A stretch of DNA of 64,000 bases, taken from the NCBI GenBank assembly GCA_963707635.1, contig OY970173.1, forward strand, positions 3,040,001 through 3,104,000. The letters run 5' to 3'. The stretch comes from Candidatus Latescibacterota bacterium. Its GTDB lineage: Bacteria; Krumholzibacteriota; Krumholzibacteriia; WVZY01; JAKEHA01. Under the pieces are notes generated by a model. That model was not told the DNA's origin, did no database searches, and saw only the letters and a list, made by a program, of their open reading frames with translations. The translations under genes were made by a program, and so were the position numbers. Shown here piece after piece: positions 28,288 to 47,900 of the stretch; within the stretch, counting starts at the first letter, position 1, and every line of letters starts with the position of its first letter.

Positions 28288-31200
28288 TCACTTCACCAGC
28301 ACGATTTTTTGCCGCTGCACGACTCCGGCCGCTTCGAACTGAACGTAGTATACGCCGCTGGCGACACGCGCGCCCCGGTCGTCGCGGCCGTCCCACGGCA
28401 CGGCGTGGGTTCCGGTGGCTCGATTCTCATCCACCAGCGCGCGCACCCGCGCGCCGCGCACATCGTACACGAACAGACGGACACGGCCCGCCTCGGGCAG
28501 ATCGAAGCCCAGCGTCGTCGACTGCGTGAACGGGCTCGGAAACGCGGGCCGGAGCGCGGCGGCCGCCGGGGGAGTGTCGTTCACGCCCGTGGGTCCTCCG
28601 GAGATACCGAGTGTGAGCGTGTAATTGCCCGTCTGATCCTGGCCGGCGTCCTCGACCACGATCGTATAGAACCCGTTGGCGCTGAGTAGCTGGTTGACGT
28701 TGTCGCTCGACGTCGAGGCGATCCACGGCCCCCCGCTGGGCGAGTACAGCCAGACCTGCGTGTCCATCGCTCCGGACGTAACGGTGGCAGTGATGTTGGC
28801 GGTCTGGCCGCTCTGCCCGAAAAACGTGTAGCCGTCCAGGTCGGCGACGGCGATGGCGGAGCCGTTGACGGGCGTATTCAGGCTGATGGGCCCGCCGTCG
28901 GTTTCGGCGCCGGTGGTGTAGGGACCGAACGACGAGTTCAAGAACGAAACGCTGTAGTCGCCCGCGGTGTCGTTCCCGTTGTCTTCGATCGCGATCGTCC
29001 ATGTGCCCGATGACGTCACCTGGTAGTCGAGCCGGTCCCCGGTCGCGTAGGTCGCAAGCGCGCCGCCCAGCGGCGGATACAGATAGATGGTCGTGTTGAA
29101 CCCGACGCCCCCGGTCGCAATGGCGCTGACGATCACCCGGCTGCCGTTGGTCGCCTGGAACTGGTAGGCATCGATGTCGGCCACGCCGCTCATCGTCCCC
29201 GTGCGGATGTCGTTCGATGCGATCGCGCCACCGTTGGCGTCGCTTCCGTCGGTGAGGGGGCCGCTGGTGGCGTTCACGAACGAAAGCGTGTACGTCCCCG
29301 TGTTGTCGTTGCCCGAGTCCTCGATCACGATCGTGTAGACTCCTGTCGTCAGGAGTTTCACGTCGAACCGGTTCGTTGAGCTGTACGCCTCGTACGCGCC
29401 CCCGCCTTGCGGGTACACCGACATGAGGGTATTGTGCGCGCCCGCGCCCGTCTCCACGCCCACCACGATCACCCGCTGGTTCGCCGATGCGTTGAACGTG
29501 TACGCGTCGAAGTCCACCCCCTGCTGGAATTGACCCGTCTTGATCTGATTCGAGAGAATCGACCCACCGTCCATGTCTCCCACATTGGTGCGCGGCCCCG
29601 ACGTCACATTCAACAAGGACATCGAGTAGTTCCCCGGGGTGTCGGTCGCGTTGTCCTCGATCAGGATCGACCACGTCCCCGTCGCCGTCAGCTGCACGTC
29701 CAGCCGGTCCCCCGTCGCGTACGTCAGGTACGCTCCCCCGCTGGGCGGATACAGAAAGATCGTCGTGTTGAACCCCGCGCCCCCCGTCGCCACCGCGTCG
29801 ATCAACACCCGGTTCCCGTTCGTCCCCGCAAACGTGAACACATCCATGTCCCCCACCCCGCTCATCGTCCCCGTCTTCACATCCGCCGAGACCATCGCTC
29901 CCCCGTCCAGGTCCCCACCGTCCGTGTACGGACCCGTCGTCACATCCACCATCGAGAGCGTGTACGTCCCCGCGTTGTCGTTGCCCACGTCCTCCACCAC
30001 GATCGTATACGTCCCCGTCTGCAACAGCTGCACGTCGAAATTGTTCGTCGAGCTGTACGCCTCGTACACACCCCCGCCCGGCGGATACACCGACATGAGG
30101 GTGTTGTGTCCCCCACCTCCCGTCTCCACCCCCGCAAACACCAGCCGGTGCCCCGCCGTCCCCGCGAACGTGAACGCGTCGAAGTCCACCCCCTGCTGGA
30201 ACTGACCCGTCACGATCTGGTTCGACACGATCACAGCCCCGTCCGTGTCACTCCCGTTCTCGTGCGGCCCCGACGTCACATTCAACAAGGACATCGAGTA
30301 GTCCCCCGGGGTGTCGGTCGCGTTGTCCTCGATCAGGATCGACCACGTCCCCGTCGCCGTCAGCTGCACGTCCAGCCGGTCCCCCGTCGCGTACGTCAGG
30401 TACGCTCCCCCGCTGGGCGGGTACAGAAAGATCGTCGTGTTGAACCCCGCGCCCCCCGTCGCCACCGCATCGATCAACACCCGGTTCCCGTTCGTCCCCG
30501 CAAACGTGAACACATCCATGTCCCCCACCCCGCTCATCGTCCCCGTCTTCACATCCGCCGAGACCATCGCTCCCCCGTCCAGGTCCCCACCGTCCGTGTA
30601 CGGACCCGTCGTCACATCCACCATCGAGAGCGTGTACGTCCCCGCGTTGTCGTTGCTCACGTCCTCCACCACAATCGTATACGTCCCCGTCTGCAACAGC
30701 TGCACGTCGAAATTGTTCGTCGAGCTGTACGCCTCGTACGCACCCCCGCCCGGCGGATACACCGACATGAGCGTGTTGTGTCCCCCGCCTCCCGTCTCCA
30801 CCCCCGCAAACACCAGCCGGTGACCCGCCGTCCCCGCGAACGTGAACGCGTCGAAGTCCACTCCCTGCTGGAACTGCCCCGCCACGATCTGGTTCGATAT
30901 GACCAACGCCCCGTCCGTGTCACTCCCGTTCTCGTGCGGCCCCGAGGTCACGTTCAAAAGCGACATCGAGTAGTCCCCGGGCGTATCGGTCGCGTTGTCC
31001 TCGATCAGGATCGACCACGTCCCCGTCGCCGTCAGCTGCACGTCCAACCGGTCCCCCGTCGCGTACGTCAGGTACGCACCCCCGCTGGGCGGGTACAAAA
31101 AGATCGTCGTGTTGAACCCCGCGCCCCCCGTCGCCACCGCATCGATCAACACCCGGTTCCCGTTCGTCCCCGCAAACGTGAACACGTCCATGTCCCCCAC

Positions 31201-32994
31201 CCCGCTCATCGTCCCCGTCTTCACGTCCGCCGAGGTCATCGCCCCGCCGTCCAGGTCTCCACCGTCCGTGTACGGGCCCGTCGTCACGTCCATCATCGAC
31301 AAGGTGTACGTCCCCGCGTTGTCGTTGCTCACGTCCTCCACCACAATCGTATACATCCCCGTCTGCGCCAGCTGCACATCGAACTGGTTCGTCGTGTTGT
31401 ACGACTCGTACACTCCCCCGCCCGGCGGATACACCGACATGAGCGTATTGTGGACTCCGCCTCCCGTCTCCACCCCCGCAAACACCAGCCGGTGACCCGC
31501 CGTCCCCGCGAACGTGAACGCATCGAAGTCCACCCCCTGCTGGAACTGCCCCGTCACGATCTGGTTCGACACGATCACAGCCCCGTCCGTGTCACTCCCG
31601 TTCTCGTGCGGCCCCGAGGTCACATTCAAGAGCGACATCGAGTAGTCCCCCGGCGTGTCGTTCGCGTTGTCCTCGATCAGGATCGTCCACGTCCCCGTCG
31701 CCGTCAGCTGCACGTCCAACCGGTCCCCCGTCGCGTACGTCAGGTACGCACCCCCGCTGGGCGGGTACAGAAAGATCGTCGTGTTGAACCCCGCTCCCCC
31801 CGTCGCCACCGCGTCGATCAACACCCGGTTCCCGTTCGTCCCCGCAAACGTGAACACATCCATGTCCCCCACCCCGCTCATCGTCCCCGTCTTCACATCC
31901 GCCGACACGATCGCTCCCCCATCCAGGTCCCCACCGTCCGTGTACGGTCCCGTCGTCACATCCACCATCGAGAGCGTGTATGTCCCCGCGTTGTCGTTGC
32001 CCACGTCCTCGATCACCAGCGTGTACGTCCCCGTCTGCGCCAGCTGCACGTCGAACTGGTTCGCCGAGTTGTACGACTCGTACACACCCCCGCCCGGCGG
32101 ATACACCGACATGAGGGTGTTGTGTCCCCCACCTCCCGTTTCCACCCCCGCAAACACCAGCCGGTGCCCCGCCGTCCCCGCGAACGTGAACGCGTCGAAG
32201 TCCACCCCCTGCTGGAACTGACCCGTCACGATCTGGTTCGACACGATCACAGCCCCGTCCGTGTCGCTCCCGTTCTCGTGCGGCCCCGAGGTCACGTTCA
32301 AAAGCGACATCGAGTAGTCCCCCGGCGTGTCGTTCGCGTTGTCCTCGATCACGATCGTCCACGTCCCCGTCGCCGTCAGCTGCACGTCCAGCCGGTCCCC
32401 CGTCGTGTACGTCAGGTACGCCCCCCCACTGGGTGGATACAGAAAGACCGTCGTGTTGAACCCCGCTCCCCCCGTCGCCACCGCGTCGATCAGCACCCGG
32501 TTCCCGTTCGTCCCCGCAAACGTGAACGCATCGATGTCCGCGGCTCCGCTCATCGTCCCCGTCTTCACATCCGCAGAGGTGATGGCGCCGCCGTCCAGAT
32601 CGCCGGCACTTGTCAGTGGCCCCGCCGTCACATTGAGAAACCCGAGCGCATAGTTCCCCGCGTCATTGAGCCCAACATCCTGGATTTCGATCGTGTAGCT
32701 GCCCGTCGCCACAAGCTGCCAGTCCATGAGGTCGGCGGATGTCGTCGCTTCGGTCCCGCCACCCGGGGCTTTCAAAACGATGTTCGTGTTCATCGCCCCG
32801 CTCGTGGTCACAGCGGAAATAATGATGCGCTGACCCGCCGTCCCCGCGAACGTCCACTGCTCGAGGTAGGTCGGGTTGGCAACGCTCCCAGCGACGGTCG
32901 AACCCGAGGTAATGGGGCCGCCGGCGCGGGCGCGTGGCGAGGCGAGAACGGTAGAGAGAACGAGGACGGGCAAGAGAATGGCTCGGGGGCTCAT
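28288..32994 (-). CDS. Large secreted protein: 13 PPC-like beta-sandwich repeats plus C-terminal FlgD-Ig domain
   Basis: Signal peptide; about 112-aa repeats (D.FTF.G..G...TGTYTI.ED); C-terminal PSPF...YDVRG...WDGRDDRG..VASGVY. Confidence 0.85.
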   Translation of the reverse strand: MSPRAILLPVLVLSTVLASPRARAGGPITSGSTVAGSVANPTYLEQWTFAGTAGQRIIISAVTTSGAMNTNIVLKAPGGGTEATTSADLMDWQLVATGSYTIEIQDVGLNDAGNYALGFLNVTAGPLTSAGDLDGGAITSADVKTGTMSGAADIDAFTFAGTNGNRVLIDAVATGGAGFNTTVFLYPPSGGAYLTYTTGDRLDVQLTATGTWTIVIEDNANDTPGDYSMSLLNVTSGPHENGSDTDGAVIVSNQIVTGQFQQGVDFDAFTFAGTAGHRLVFAGVETGGGGHNTLMSVYPPGGGVYESYNSANQFDVQLAQTGTYTLVIEDVGNDNAGTYTLSMVDVTTGPYTDGGDLDGGAIVSADVKTGTMSGVGDMDVFTFAGTNGNRVLIDAVATGGAGFNTTIFLYPPSGGAYLTYATGDRLDVQLTATGTWTILIEDNANDTPGDYSMSLLNVTSGPHENGSDTDGAVIVSNQIVTGQFQQGVDFDAFTFAGTAGHRLVFAGVETGGGVHNTLMSVYPPGGGVYESYNTTNQFDVQLAQTGMYTIVVEDVSNDNAGTYTLSMMDVTTGPYTDGGDLDGGAMTSADVKTGTMSGVGDMDVFTFAGTNGNRVLIDAVATGGAGFNTTIFLYPPSGGAYLTYATGDRLDVQLTATGTWSILIEDNATDTPGDYSMSLLNVTSGPHENGSDTDGALVISNQIVAGQFQQGVDFDAFTFAGTAGHRLVFAGVETGGGGHNTLMSVYPPGGGAYEAYSSTNNFDVQLLQTGTYTIVVEDVSNDNAGTYTLSMVDVTTGPYTDGGDLDGGAMVSADVKTGTMSGVGDMDVFTFAGTNGNRVLIDAVATGGAGFNTTIFLYPPSGGAYLTYATGDRLDVQLTATGTWSILIEDNATDTPGDYSMSLLNVTSGPHENGSDTDGAVIVSNQIVTGQFQQGVDFDAFTFAGTAGHRLVFAGVETGGGGHNTLMSVYPPGGGVYEAYSSTNNFDVQLLQTGTYTIVVEDVGNDNAGTYTLSMVDVTTGPYTDGGDLDGGAMVSADVKTGTMSGVGDMDVFTFAGTNGNRVLIDAVATGGAGFNTTIFLYPPSGGAYLTYATGDRLDVQLTATGTWSILIEDNATDTPGNYSMSLLNVTSGPRTNVGDMDGGSILSNQIKTGQFQQGVDFDAYTFNASANQRVIVVGVETGAGAHNTLMSVYPQGGGAYEAYSSTNRFDVKLLTTGVYTIVIEDSGNDNTGTYTLSFVNATSGPLTDGSDANGGAIASNDIRTGTMSGVADIDAYQFQATNGSRVIVSAIATGGVGFNTTIYLYPPLGGALATYATGDRLDYQVTSSGTWTIAIEDNGNDTAGDYSVSFLNSSFGPYTTGAETDGGPISLNTPVNGSAIAVADLDGYTFFGQSGQTANITATVTSGAMDTQVWLYSPSGGPWIASTSSDNVNQLLSANGFYTIVVEDAGQDQTGNYTLTLGISGGPTGVNDTPPAAAALRPAFPSPFTQSTTLGFDLPEAGRVRLFVYDVRGARVRALVDENRATGTHAVPWDGRDDRGARVASGVYYVQFEAAGVVQRQKIVLVK
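29500..32600. repeat. 672-bp intragenic tandem repeat (about 4.5 units)
   Basis: Near-identical blocks recur at 29639, 30311, about 30983, 31655 and 32327. Confidence 0.9.
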
Positions 32995-40845: not shown

Positions 40846-42024
40846 CTACACGCGCTGGAACACCCCCGCAACTCCCATGCCGCCACCCACGCACATGGTC
40901 ACGATGCCATATTCCACACCGCGGCGGTGCATTTCGTAAAGCAGAGTTGTCGAGAGCTTGGCCCCCGTGCACCCGAGCGGATGCCCGAGCGCGATCGCCC
41001 CGCCGTTCACGTTGAGCTGGTCGTCGCGCAGGCCGAGGTCTTTCTGGACATAGACGGCCTGCGAGGCGAAGGCTTCGTTCAGCTCGACCAGGCCGATCTC
41101 GCCCAGCGTGAGGTTGGCCTGCTTGAGCACTCTGGGCACGGCGAGCGCGGGGCCGATGCCCATCAGCTCGGGCTCCACGCCGGCGGTCGCAAAGGCGATG
41201 AGCCGCCCCTTGGGCTTGAGCTTGAGTTCCTTCATCACGTCTTCCGAGACCAGCACCAGCGCCGAGGCACCGTCGTTCATCGGCGAGGAGTTACCGGCGG
41301 TCACGGTGCCGCCGTTTCGAAACACCGGTTTGAGCGCGGCGAGGGCTTCGAGCGAGGTGTCGGTCCGCACGCCCTCGTCCACGGCGAACTCGATCGCGCG
41401 CGACTCGACCTTGTTCTTCGCGTTGATCGTCTTTTCCACGACCGGCACCGGCACGATCTCGCTCTTGAACTTCCCTTCGGCGATGGCGGCCGCCGCGCGC
41501 TGGTGCGATCGCAGCGCGAACTTGTCCTGCTCCTCGCGGGTGATCTTGTACTTCGCGGCGACGTTCTCCGCGGTGTTGCCCATGCTGATGTACGCGGCGG
41601 GCATGTTCGTCATTAGAGAAGGATTGGGCGACGGCTTGTTGCCGCTCATCGGGATCATGCTCATGCTCTCGACCCCGCCGGCCACCACCACGTCCACCTC
41701 GCCGAGACGGATGCGGGCGGTCGCCGCGTGGATGGCTTCCAGGCCCGACGCGCAGAAGCGGTTCACGGTCACACCCGAGGTGGTGATCGGGAGTCCCGCG
41801 CGCAGGACGGCGAGCCGCGCCACGTTCAGGCCCTGCTCGCCTTCGGGCATCGCGCAGCCCAGGACCACGTCTTCGACGCGCGCCGGGTCCAGACCCTTCG
41901 CGCGCGCGATCGCCTCCTGGATGACGAGCGCCGCCAGCTCGTCCGGGCGTGTGTTGCGCAGAACGCCCTTGAACGCGCGCCCGACGGGTGTGCGGACCGC
42001 CGATATGATATAGGCGTCTCTCAT
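40846..42024 (-). CDS. fadA: Acetyl-CoA acyltransferase (thiolase)
   Basis: [21 protein letters not shown] and MCVGGGMG. Confidence 0.95.
41924..42024. repeat. Direct repeat copy 1 (thiolase 5' end)
   Basis: 41924-42012 is identical to 43929-44017 (89 bp); 98/101 to the ATG. Confidence 0.95.
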
Positions 42025-42049
42025 AGTGCCGCTCTTGAGACCCGACTCC

Positions 42050-44029
42050 TCACAAACCGAAACCACATTGGGCCGGCAATACGAACAAATCCTCATCAGC
42101 TACATAGACATACGATCCAACGACCGTGACAGCATTCGCAGCTCTAGGCGTGGTGGAACTCCCGATAATCCTCGGCAACCTTGGCAACGCTACGCTGATC
42201 ACATGAACGCCAAATTCTCCGTCCGCCACATAGGCGTATGATCCCGCGACTGACACGCCGAGTGCCGTACCCGGCGTGTCGACATTGCCAACAATCATCG
42301 GCAGCGAAGGCGATTTCACATCGATCACCTGTAGACCAAATTCTCCGTCCGCCACATAGGCGTATGTTCCCACGACTGACACGCCGAGCGCCGAACCTGG
42401 AGTATCGACACTACCAATGATCGCCGGCGACATCGGCGACGTCACATCAATCACTTGCAGACCAGCCTCGCTGTCGGCGACGTAGACGTACGACCCAACC
42501 GAGAACAAACCGATGGCTAATCCTGGAGTATCGACGTGCCCAATGACGGTGGGTAACGATGGGGATCTGATATCGATCACGTGTAGGCCGAGCGACCCAT
42601 CGGCAACGTAAGCGTGCGCCCCCGCGACAGTCACTGCACGTGCGTCGGACGGCGTGTCGACGCTCCCGGCGATGAGCGGCGAGGCCGGAGAAGTAACATC
42701 AATCACCTGCAAACCTGTGTAACCATCCGCAACGTACGCGTAAGACCCATTCACAGCCACCCCGTTCGCCATGGCCGGTGTGACGACTCCGCCGACCACA
42801 ACAGGCGACAGGGGCGAAGTTACGTCAATAACTTTCAGCCCAGAGAATGGACCGTCTACCAGGTAGGCGTACCGCCCTTCCACCACCACACCAACGGCAA
42901 TACCCGGAGTATCGATACCGCCACCAGCAACAGGCTGCGCTGGCGTCGTCACATCGACAATCTTCATCCCGGAGTAGTGGTCCGCCACGTAGGCGTACGA
43001 CCCAGCTACCGTCACGCCTATCGCGCGGTCTGGGGTATCGACACTCCCGACGATCACGGGTGAAGTTGGTATTGAGAGGTCGATCACCTGAAGACCGGAC
43101 TCGTAGTCCGCAACGTACGCACGCGACCCGACAATCGCCATTCGAATCGCCGAGCTCGGTGTATCGACACCCCCTACGATTACCGGCGAGGCAGGCACCG
43201 AGACGTCGATTACATGTACACCAGACTCATTGTCCGCCAAATACACATAGGTCCCGACGATGGCCACGTCATGTGCAAAACTTGGCGTGTCGACGCTACC
43301 AATGATCCTCGGCAATGAAGGGTTTGTGATATCAACAACCTTGAAACCACCAAAAGCGTTAGCCACATAAGCGTATGCACCACTCACCGCCACGCCATCC
43401 GCGCCGTAGAACATATCGATGCTACCGACAATCACCGGCGAGCCGGGTGAACCAATGTCGAGAATCACAAGGCCATAGCTGTTTGTCACGTAGGCATAGG
43501 ATCCCACGACCGTTACGTAGTTCACCTCGGGCAGTACTGCGACATTTCCCACAATCTCCGGCGAAAATGGCGAGGCAACATCCACCACATGCAAGCCGGC
43601 GAACCCCCCCGCCACATAGGCGTACGAACCCATGATCGCCACCGCGTACGCTCCACGCGGCATGGCGACACTCCCCACAATTGTCGGTGACGAGCCTATC
43701 GATATGTCGACCACCTGAAGGCCAGACGTCATGTCAGCGACAAACGCGTACGATCCCACTACTGTCACGTCATACGCTCTGTCCGGTGTGTCCACGCCGC
43801 CTAGGAGACGCATATGGTTCGCATAGTTGACGCAGCCACTTTCATCTGGCTTCGATGGCGTACCCGTGACGCTGTCGCTGTCACATCCACCCCACGGTAC
43901 AGTCGCCAGCGCCAGGACAGCTCCGGCCACGAGCGCCGCCAGCTCGTCCGGGCGTGTGTTGCGCAGAACGCCCTTGAACGCGCGCCCGACGGGTGTGCGG
44001 ACCGCCGATATGATATACGCGTTTTTCAT
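42050..44029 (-). CDS. LVIVD-repeat beta-propeller lipoprotein with thiolase-derived N-terminus
   Basis: 14 [14 protein letters not shown] repeats; WGGC lipobox; first 34 aa copy thiolase; visibly lower GC. Confidence 0.85.
43929..44029. repeat. Direct repeat copy 2 (thiolase 5' end fused to LVIVD gene)
   Basis: Matches 41924-42024. Confidence 0.95.
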
Positions 44030-44046
44030 GGCATTGCCTAATGGGC

Positions 44047-45492
44047 TCAATTGATATAGCCCAGCGAGCGCAGCTTCTCCAGCGCCTCGCGGTCCGTGCT
44101 TTCGAACATGAAGTACTCCTTCGACGTTTGCATCTTCGCGAAGGACTTCCCGAGCACGGCCATCAGGTCGCGCTGCACGTCGGGCTGCTGCTCGGCCAGA
44201 TTAGTCTCCTCTGCCGGGTCGCGCGCCAGGTTGTACAGCTCGGTGCCGCGGTTCTCGTTCCAGATCAACTTCTCGTCCGGCGCACGCACGCAGCGCATGC
44301 GGTAGTCGATCGTTTTCCAGTCGTAGCCCGGGTAACGCCCCTGCAGCAGCTTGATGCCCACCACCGGCCGCTCGTTCCCGGCCAGAATGAAGTCCTCCGC
44401 TGCGCGGCCCTTGCGCGCGAGGCTCGTCGTCTCCGGGCGCAGGAGGGGCGCCCGGTCCGCCGCGCCGCACAGGTCGAGCACGGTGGGGGCGAGGTCGACG
44501 ATGCTGACGAGCCCGTCCACGCGCGTCCCTGCGGGGAACCCACGCGGGTAGCAGATCACGAGCGGGATGTGCAGCCCGGCGTCGTACATCGTGCTCATGT
44601 GGTCGATCTTGCCCTTCTCGCCCAGGTGCTCGCCGTGGTCGGAAGTCACGATGACAATCGTGTCGTCCAGAACCCCCGAGCGCTCGAGCGCGTCGACGAC
44701 CTCGCCCACCAGCGCGTCGGCCCACGCCACCTCGGCGTCGTAGAGGTCGTTGAGGATCCGGTAGTCCGTCTGGTCGAGCGGCATCTCGCCCACCAGGTGT
44801 CCCCACCCCGACTGTATCCCTGCCAGCTGGCGCACCCGCGCGAGGTTGTAACCCTTGCCGGCGAGAAAGCGCGAGGCGTACGGTTCCGCGGGAGTGTATG
44901 GGAGGTGCACGCCGTTGAGGTTGGCGAAAAGGAAGAATGGCTTGTCATCGTTCGCCGCGGACGTGATCCACGCCACCATGCGGTCGACGGTGAAGGTCTC
45001 CATCGAACCCCTGGTCGTGTCCGCGCCGGCACGGTTCTCCGCGCGCCACATCTCGAGAAATTCCTGGAACCCCTGGCCGAACCCGCGTTCCTTCGACACC
45101 CAGCTGTTGCACACGAAGCCCGCCGTGCGGTACCCGGCGTCGCTCAACGCTTCGGCCACCGTGAGGTTCTGATCCGGCAGGTGGAGGGTTTCCGAGGTTG
45201 CGCCGGCCTGGACGGGGTGCAGCCCGGTGAAGAGCGACGCGTGCGCCGGCAGCGTCCAGAAGCACGTGCTGAACGCGCGCGAGTACATCGCACCGCGGGC
45301 CGCGAGCGCGTCGATGCGCGGAGTGGTCTCGCGACCGTAGCCGGCGCACGAGAGCCGGTCGCCGCGGAGCGTATCGAGCACGAGCAAGACGACGTTGGGT
45401 TTGTGCGCACGCTCGCAGCCGGAAAGCCCGAAGGCAACGCAGGCCACGGCCAGCGCCGCGTGGAGAAGCAAATGACGATGCACCTTCGACAC
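44047..45492 (-). CDS. Sulfatase-like (alkaline phosphatase superfamily) lipoprotein
   Basis: LSGC lipobox, LDTLRGD, WTLPAHASLFTG, TSDHGE and LRSLGYI. Confidence 0.88.
   Translation of the reverse strand: MSKVHRHLLLHAALAVACVAFGLSGCERAHKPNVVLLVLDTLRGDRLSCAGYGRETTPRIDALAARGAMYSRAFSTCFWTLPAHASLFTGLHPVQAGATSETLHLPDQNLTVAEALSDAGYRTAGFVCNSWVSKERGFGQGFQEFLEMWRAENRAGADTTRGSMETFTVDRMVAWITSAANDDKPFFLFANLNGVHLPYTPAEPYASRFLAGKGYNLARVRQLAGIQSGWGHLVGEMPLDQTDYRILNDLYDAEVAWADALVGEVVDALERSGVLDDTIVIVTSDHGEHLGEKGKIDHMSTMYDAGLHIPLVICYPRGFPAGTRVDGLVSIVDLAPTVLDLCGAADRAPLLRPETTSLARKGRAAEDFILAGNERPVVGIKLLQGRYPGYDWKTIDYRMRCVRAPDEKLIWNENRGTELYNLARDPAEETNLAEQQPDVQRDLMAVLGKSFAKMQTSKEYFMFESTDREALEKLRSLGYIN

Positions 45493-45503: not shown

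Positions 45504-47900
<2,397 letters not shown>

Follow-up and report, generated by a model that had tools for sequence, protein, structure and literature searches.

Judged by comparison of sequences, a 2,005-bp unit at the start of a thiolase gene is a recent single-gene insertion that is polymorphic within its species. The unit lies in a window of 64,000 nt, the whole stretch of DNA that was analysed, which forms part of a single 3.2-Mb contig (C1) of a genome that is 96% complete (G000). On the minus strand the genes follow one another in the order fadN, sulfatase, fusion ORF, thiolase, DinB-family gene and acyl-CoA dehydrogenase. The features of the locus are given below, all of them on the minus strand.

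40846..42024, minus strand: intact thiolase (acetyl-CoA C-acyltransferase, 392 aa).
41924..42024, minus strand: downstream repeat copy (MRDAY start), which heads the intact thiolase and, from the repeat comparison and the empty-site contigs, probably arrived with the insert.
41924..43928, minus strand: the 2,005-bp unit that the empty allele lacks (contig joint 41923>43929); the crossover may lie anywhere in the 89-bp core.
42025..42049, minus strand: spacer of 25 nt between the LVIVD stop and the thiolase ATG, read from the sequence.
42050..44029, minus strand: fusion ORF of 659 aa, with thiolase residues 1–34, the signal remainder (Cys49), a low-complexity tether and 14 predicted beta-propeller blades.
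43883..43928, minus strand: remainder of the signal peptide of the cargo, up to Cys49, with the non-canonical lipobox WGGC; homologues have LIFGC or LSAGC at the same place.
43929..44029, minus strand: upstream repeat copy (MKNAY start), the native thiolase start now fused to the LVIVD frame; the empty-site contigs share this start with 0 differences.
43937..43946, minus strand, with a second copy at 41932–41941: the 10-mer CGAGCTGGCG, 8 nt before the repeat end, which also precedes the junction of a second event in the genome.
44047..45492, minus strand: sulfatase gene; 7 of 13 relatives, like the empty allele, have it directly before the thiolase.
45504..47900, minus strand: FadN-type 3-hydroxyacyl-CoA dehydrogenase / enoyl-CoA hydratase, the conserved left flank of the variable slot.

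The direct repeat (41924–42024 and 43929–44029) consists of thiolase coding sequence, is 101 nt long with 97% identity and has a spacing of 2005 nt. Its core of 89 nt is perfect, and all three differences fall within the first 12 coding bases, giving MKNAY in one copy and MRDAY in the other. The insert has a G+C content of 0.579, within the lowest 0.5% of 1,686 genome windows of 1.9 kb, and a GC3 of 0.62 versus 0.87–0.90 in four flanking core genes. An earlier note had described a direct repeat around a lower-GC gene of 2 kb, an upstream copy fused to it in frame and an intact thiolase behind the insert. All of this was confirmed, with a single open frame running from 44029 to 42050 through thiolase residues 1–34 into LVIVD, and a thiolase of full length beginning 25 nt past the LVIVD stop. 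No further copy of the thiolase piece was present anywhere in the 3.2-Mb genome and the core in other species of the genus, all 13 that were checked, departs from the window in 13–27 of its 89 bases, so that the repeat is far beyond chance and recent; since the core is identical between the copies, both probably came from this species, which would also be that of the donor. A consensus scan of positions 41800–44300 gave no sigma-70-like and no terminator-like site (0.9 and 1.6 expected by chance). With the thiolase 25 nt behind the cargo and no terminator-like site there, the operon should therefore still be read through.

The empty allele was recovered from public data. Contigs in runs X1 and X5, both from one study, join 41923 to 43929 and skip exactly 2005 nt, with 89 nt assignable to both sides, 0 differences and the MKNAY start; that of X1 measures 320 nt (37 nt on the short side) and that of X5 238 nt (100 nt). 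Because these contigs carry MKNAY, the upstream copy is taken as the native start. The site was empty in two of the four runs compared (X1, X2, X4 and X5), and the unit is therefore absent from other members of the species. Run X2, from a second study, held a relative of about 92% identity in which the sulfatase runs into the thiolase. The empty allele differs from the window only by the 2,005-bp unit, and no recipient DNA was deleted. The empty site with the upstream start in two runs supports the proposal of an insertion with target reconstitution; that of clean excision is supported too, for a crossover between the repeats in the 89 bp would restore the very allele that was observed. Pieces of the LVIVD gene at 0–1 differences were present in four public runs (X1–X4), and the gene therefore exists in nature. 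The five public runs listed for the sequence (X1–X5) include no RNA set. Contigs of X1–X4 were compared at 85% and those of X1, X2, X4 and X5 at 90%, with a patchy cover of 2- to 5-fold; the contig sets X1–X5 are shallow and have no cover across either insert junction, and the circle joint of the unit was absent among the contigs of four such sets lacking junction cover. All five near-identical LVIVD pieces from the four runs lie within 42563–43015, about 450 nt of the 1.9-kb gene, which may be a block common to several LVIVD alleles. A mosaic LVIVD gene was considered and rejected, as GC3 along its blades (0.52–0.74) shows no block at 42563–43015.

The fusion protein consists of 34 thiolase codons, a hydrophobic stretch, Cys49, a tether and LVIVD repeats, in this order. 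In Pfam it matched LVIVD (PF08309) with an E value of 6e-104 and 339.6 bits against a cut-off of 20.2, and the Thiolase_N piece matched with an E value of 2.8e-4. Its AlphaFold2 model (mean pLDDT 88.8, pTM 0.57) contains 56 strands, that is 14 four-stranded blades, and a single helix at residues 27–42 across the junction; residues 1–13 and 43–70 are of low confidence. Fold matches were generic tandem beta-propellers such as PorZ (5m11) and BT4663 (4a2m), with at most 14% identity and a TM-score of at most 0.40. Residues 31–45 have a mean hydropathy of 2.1 and are followed by Gly-Gly-Cys49. Canonical lipoboxes have Leu, Val or Ile at −3 and the Cys at about position 15–35. The fusion departs from this pattern, with Trp at −3 and Cys at position 49, and has two acidic residues ahead of the hydrophobic stretch.

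Two LVIVD homologues in the genus (G003 and G013) have their own, thiolase-free signals of lipoprotein type, 19–28 residues long and ending in LIFGC or LSAGC (Cys at positions 19 and 28), followed by a tether and repeats, which supports the loss of the LVIVD gene's own start; the earlier note had the thiolase residues replacing the n-region of its signal peptide. The G003 homologue is found about 7 kb downstream of the thiolase at the same locus, with its own start. The cargo groups with these lipoprotein-type members and lacks the C-terminal FlgD/T9SS-type domain that many of its best matches carry. It has no close relative: the best of 4,696 matches in a search of 5.8 billion proteins has about 50% identity, and relatives elsewhere reach 52% over part of the protein in metagenome loci and 41–50% in the genus. 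An exact look-up of the fusion protein gave no exact match in the protein collection, and no DNA-level source of the LVIVD gene was found in the 3.2-Mb genome. A donor allele with the native LVIVD start was found neither in the genus nor in the 5.8-billion-protein search (whole protein and residues 30–100), nor among 24 metagenome loci, none of which has the gene with a thiolase. As far as the sequence goes, the chimeric N-terminus is a candidate export signal, which may or may not export the double beta-propeller; translation would begin at the thiolase start, and the chimeric signal peptide would be a by-product.

The thiolase start was present in one copy in all 23 genomes with a match, among 35 other genomes of the order that were searched. 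In 13 genomes of the genus the DNA before the thiolase was the sulfatase in seven and fadN directly in two; the four others had a 567-aa secreted protein on the other strand (G006), short ORFs (G012 and G013) or about 130 nt (G007). This slot is a cargo hot spot, with different cargo in different relatives. The MRDAY start is the commoner one (9 of the 13), and MKN starts occur in G003, G010 and G014. After the thiolase the stretch varies from about 45 nt to 15 kb in genomes of the genus, and between thiolase and acyl-CoA dehydrogenase a second cargo slot of up to 15 kb holds stacked genes for secreted proteins (G003:C13, G013:C4, G014:C14), with the LVIVD lipoprotein of own start among its contents in G003.

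It is considered, on balance, probable that general recombination, with no integrase, made the insertion: an illegitimate joint would have turned a donor fragment into a circle, which a single homologous crossover then brought in. A sister strain would have had an LVIVD lipoprotein gene directly before its thiolase. A piece of that strain's DNA, with one end about 101 nt into the thiolase and the other a few codons into the LVIVD signal peptide, would have entered the cell and its ends would have been joined illegitimately, probably at a short common stretch of Ala-Leu-Val codons. One RecA-type crossover in the 89 identical bases would then have added the circle, duplicating the thiolase start without breaking the operon. 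The same product would come from a linear route in which one crossover was homologous and the other illegitimate, and the two routes are indistinguishable here. The fusion would be in frame because the joint probably fell in the shared Ala-Leu-Val codons; since the search for a donor allele in which LVIVD has its native start was negative, microhomology at the thiolase joint is only inferred. As is the mark of a recircularised donor, the anchor is partly duplicated around the cargo, with the recipient allele outside and the donor allele inside. Against this reading stand the fusion junction, known from a single assembly, the donor allele that did not turn up (the best relatives of the cargo are about 50% identical), the circle that was not observed, the rarity of classical homology-facilitated illegitimate recombination and its loss of recipient DNA, and the single clear parallel in about 2.5 Mb of relatives; nor is the junction 10-mer predicted by it.

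Besides the thiolase, a genome-wide scan for local direct repeats gave one further start-anchored case. At C1:25,288–28,322 of G000, about 300 nt of the 5' end of an M24 peptidase gene are duplicated from the ribosome-binding site onwards, with one synonymous difference. The order is TauE-like gene, M24 5' copy, last third of yeiH, gene of a secreted beta-propeller on the other strand and intact peptidase. The joint shows 7 nt of microhomology and does not keep the frame, so that the in-frame fusion at the thiolase needs no selection. On overlapping matches this second site was empty in 13 of 16 genus genomes; the remaining ones are G003, with a different small gene at the site, G007, where the sequence breaks off, and G015, in which the whole yeiH stands directly before the peptidase. 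The M24 case thus shows a donor-type neighbour and an illegitimate joint, both of which are only inferred at the thiolase. A third event was detected in G012 (C1:17,734–25,272), where a promoter and about 99 codons are duplicated (437 nt, 92%) around about 6.5 kb of low-GC3 genes; this cargo includes, by look, a candidate ABC transporter and a radical-SAM-type gene. It was the one clear parallel in the approximately 2.5 Mb of relatives surveyed (from G012 about 2.0 Mb out of 3.5 Mb, from G002 0.42 Mb out of 3.7 Mb, and small parts of G013 and G014), and no parallel event was seen in the 0.42 Mb of G002. In all three events the repeat starts where the homology of the slot alleles starts, at the gene start or promoter, and ends variably inside the gene. 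Tandem paralogues of secreted proteins and kinases, REP-like repeats, and tRNA and comM 3' repeats were dropped as parallels, as were a near-whole Mrp-like duplication and a decayed operon duplicate in G012.

The kind of product is known from a laboratory cross. In E. coli, according to Amarir-Bouhram et al. 2011 (PMC3240628), 56 of 60 selected clones with one-sided homology had integrated the donor as partial duplications, of 109–950 bp in the 14 that were sequenced; the donor was trimmed by RecBCD and then recircularised, and deletion-type homology-facilitated illegitimate recombination was the minority. The present events (101, about 300 and 437 bp) resemble these clones in the one-sided homology, the lack of an integrase and the cargo placed between partial target duplications; they differ from that plasmid under laboratory selection in the natural chromosomal cargo passed between strains, the whole target and the in-frame fusion. 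Classical homology-facilitated illegitimate recombination is described in the same paper as rare, as deleting recipient DNA and as having microhomologies of 3–10 bp, a range that includes the 7 nt of the second event. It normally deletes about as much as it adds, whereas here nothing was deleted and the start of the anchor was duplicated. The anchor model has been invoked for natural T6SS immunity arrays of Vibrio cholerae (PMC5361080), in which, as here, conserved neighbours serve as anchors and cargo piles up at a variable slot; transformation-driven duplications have been described as arising at repeats (PMC3784515). In the literature outside subscription journals and preprint supplements, as far as its accessible parts extend, no description of the locus or of such captures in the lineage was found. 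The most plausible reading of the locus is that general recombination added the gene naturally at a cargo hot spot, with neither an integrase nor a mobile element involved.

Both repeats of G000, that of the thiolase and that of the M24 gene, end 4–8 nt after CGAGCTGGCG, a 10-mer that the genome contains 162 times. When positions in host genes were paired at random, a common 10-mer turned up in 104 of 200,000 trials (near diagonals) or 861 of 100,000 (any offset), in a test of two events that was set up after the match had been noticed. The 10-mer is absent from the third event, in G012. Both sites in G000 lie on the leading strand, as for a Chi site facing a break inside the gene. The heptamer GCTGGCG, which we take to resemble described Chi cores, is in the top 0.1% of 7-mers by raw skew and ranks 151 of 9,528 once the coding strand is controlled. 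A reading of the 10-mer as Chi was not supported, given a strand bias that is ordinary after the control for gene direction and the G012 event without the motif. Only a slim chance is left to a sequence-directed capture, in which incoming strain DNA would get its end by trimming or cutting a few nt 3' of CGAGCTGGCG, microhomology or Ku would close the fragment, and a single crossover would place it before a core gene; a similarly slight likelihood attaches to CGAGCTGGCG being, on that route, a Chi-like stop for AddAB or a nuclease site. If the sequence-directed route were true, single surface-protein genes would be added reversibly, sometimes as a working chimeric export signal under a core-gene start, and the 10-mer would be the first candidate recombination hot-spot motif for the phylum.

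The earlier note had reported no integrase nearby, and none was found in the unit, which has one ORF only, or in the window. Recombinase genes of the genome, about 1 Mb from the unit, are a pair of XerC/D-like genes close to the terminus and a stub of an integron integrase; there is no serine recombinase in the genome, and in place of an intact IntI just the C-terminal stub at C1:806 kb. The genome also encodes ComEC, Ku and an AddAB-like pair.

Several other repeats were observed in the same genome. C-terminal stubs of integron integrases at 806.2 and 814.8 kb lie amid repeats of about 150–230 nt and small cassette-like genes, and C1:798,000–816,000 looks like a decayed integron array. At C1:772,700–801,000 a comM-like gene is followed by at least five copies of its last approximately 160 codons, 78–96% alike, which have an identical start point and each delimit cargo; in G012 a single copy of this kind accompanies a related cargo gene. 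Repeats of tRNA ends, 38–47 nt long, bracket single genes of 1.5–2.4 kb without an integrase at C1:749,910, 1,612,093 and 2,429,730. Tandem TPR-like genes of 770–800 aa at C1:2,930,631–2,935,032 share 1,400 identical bases and have different ends, being either a real conversion or a haplotype duplicate. Within the window, at 28,950–32,660 (C1:3,068,954–3,072,574), an ORF of 1,582 aa contains several copies, about 90% identical, of a 672-nt tandem repeat unit. In G012:C1, at about 505,900–506,970, a 209-nt leader, presumably similar to a cobalamin riboswitch, is duplicated 848 nt apart before a receptor-like gene.

Other origins of the locus were weighed against the recircularised donor. The fusion junction is known from one assembly, and the genome is one 3.2-Mb contig, probably from long reads; coexisting strains with sulfatase–thiolase and LVIVD–thiolase arrangements could have been concatenated into an assembly or library chimera, and the junction would then exist in no cell. 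Assemblers are described, in 10.1101/2025.04.22.649783, as concatenating subpopulation-specific regions and making false duplications; the empty site and a piece of LVIVD are present together in run X1, and the copies come from different haplotypes in all three events. Such a chimera nevertheless appears rather unlikely. The cargo is broken within its opening codons, with the frame kept, a frame of 659 codons runs without a frameshift and matches the public contigs letter for letter where these cover it, the second event begins in the middle of yeiH with a microhomology at its joint, and the G012 copies, 8% apart, are probably too far from each other for a strain collapse. It was because of this second-event microhomology and third-event divergence that the chimera was rated lower.

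Site-specific integration of the dusA type, by a recombinase acting in trans, would supply a replacement 5' end, with crossing over at a core close to CGAGCTGGCG, where the repeat has its 3' end. An insertion at a 5' end with a replacement 5' end is also made by SXT/R391 in prfC, elements which are large, carry an integrase and have a fixed att site. The geometry equals that of the dusA islands, which, according to PMC4482086, likewise insert in a protein-coding 5' end, supply a new one and leave the original start at the outer border; both G000 junctions lie 4–8 nt past the same 10-mer, and the fixed-start comM 3' repeats show that site-specific addition occurs in the lineage. This origin is nonetheless quite improbable, as the dusA islands are large and have their own integrase and a fixed att of 19–28 bp in many genomes, and the present unit has 2 kb and one gene, was found once (the site is used in 0 of 23 relatives) and is flanked by 101 nt identical to the host instead of a short att site with a diverged replacement. 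Neither the unit nor the window has an integrase, and the candidates in the genome are limited to the stub and the XerC/D-like genes; a truncated yeiH, such as opens the second insert, would have no place in an element, and the G012 event is without the motif, its breakpoint lying at an unrelated sequence. A purely local history, in which the thiolase was partly duplicated in tandem and the LVIVD gene arrived separately or moved within the chromosome, finds some backing in the LVIVD paralogues of the genome (42% at C1:1.354 Mb) and in its several tandem duplications. It is very improbable when set against the alien GC3 of the gene and the want of a DNA-level source for it in the genome; moreover, the three start differences match alleles of relatives (MRDAY in 9 of 13) and are not fresh mutations, and two events would be needed where one suffices.

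Insertions of this kind would probably be missed by island finders keyed on integrases or tRNA ends. Were the junction an assembly chimera, it would be a warning that single-contig genomes may contain invented in-frame fusions. By its recurring geometry and the junction motif that two events share, the route could be put to the test in strain-resolved long reads. Read as an addition by general recombination, the locus would be a snapshot of an uncultured lineage gaining a gene beside a core gene without a mobile element, reversibly and with the operon undisrupted.
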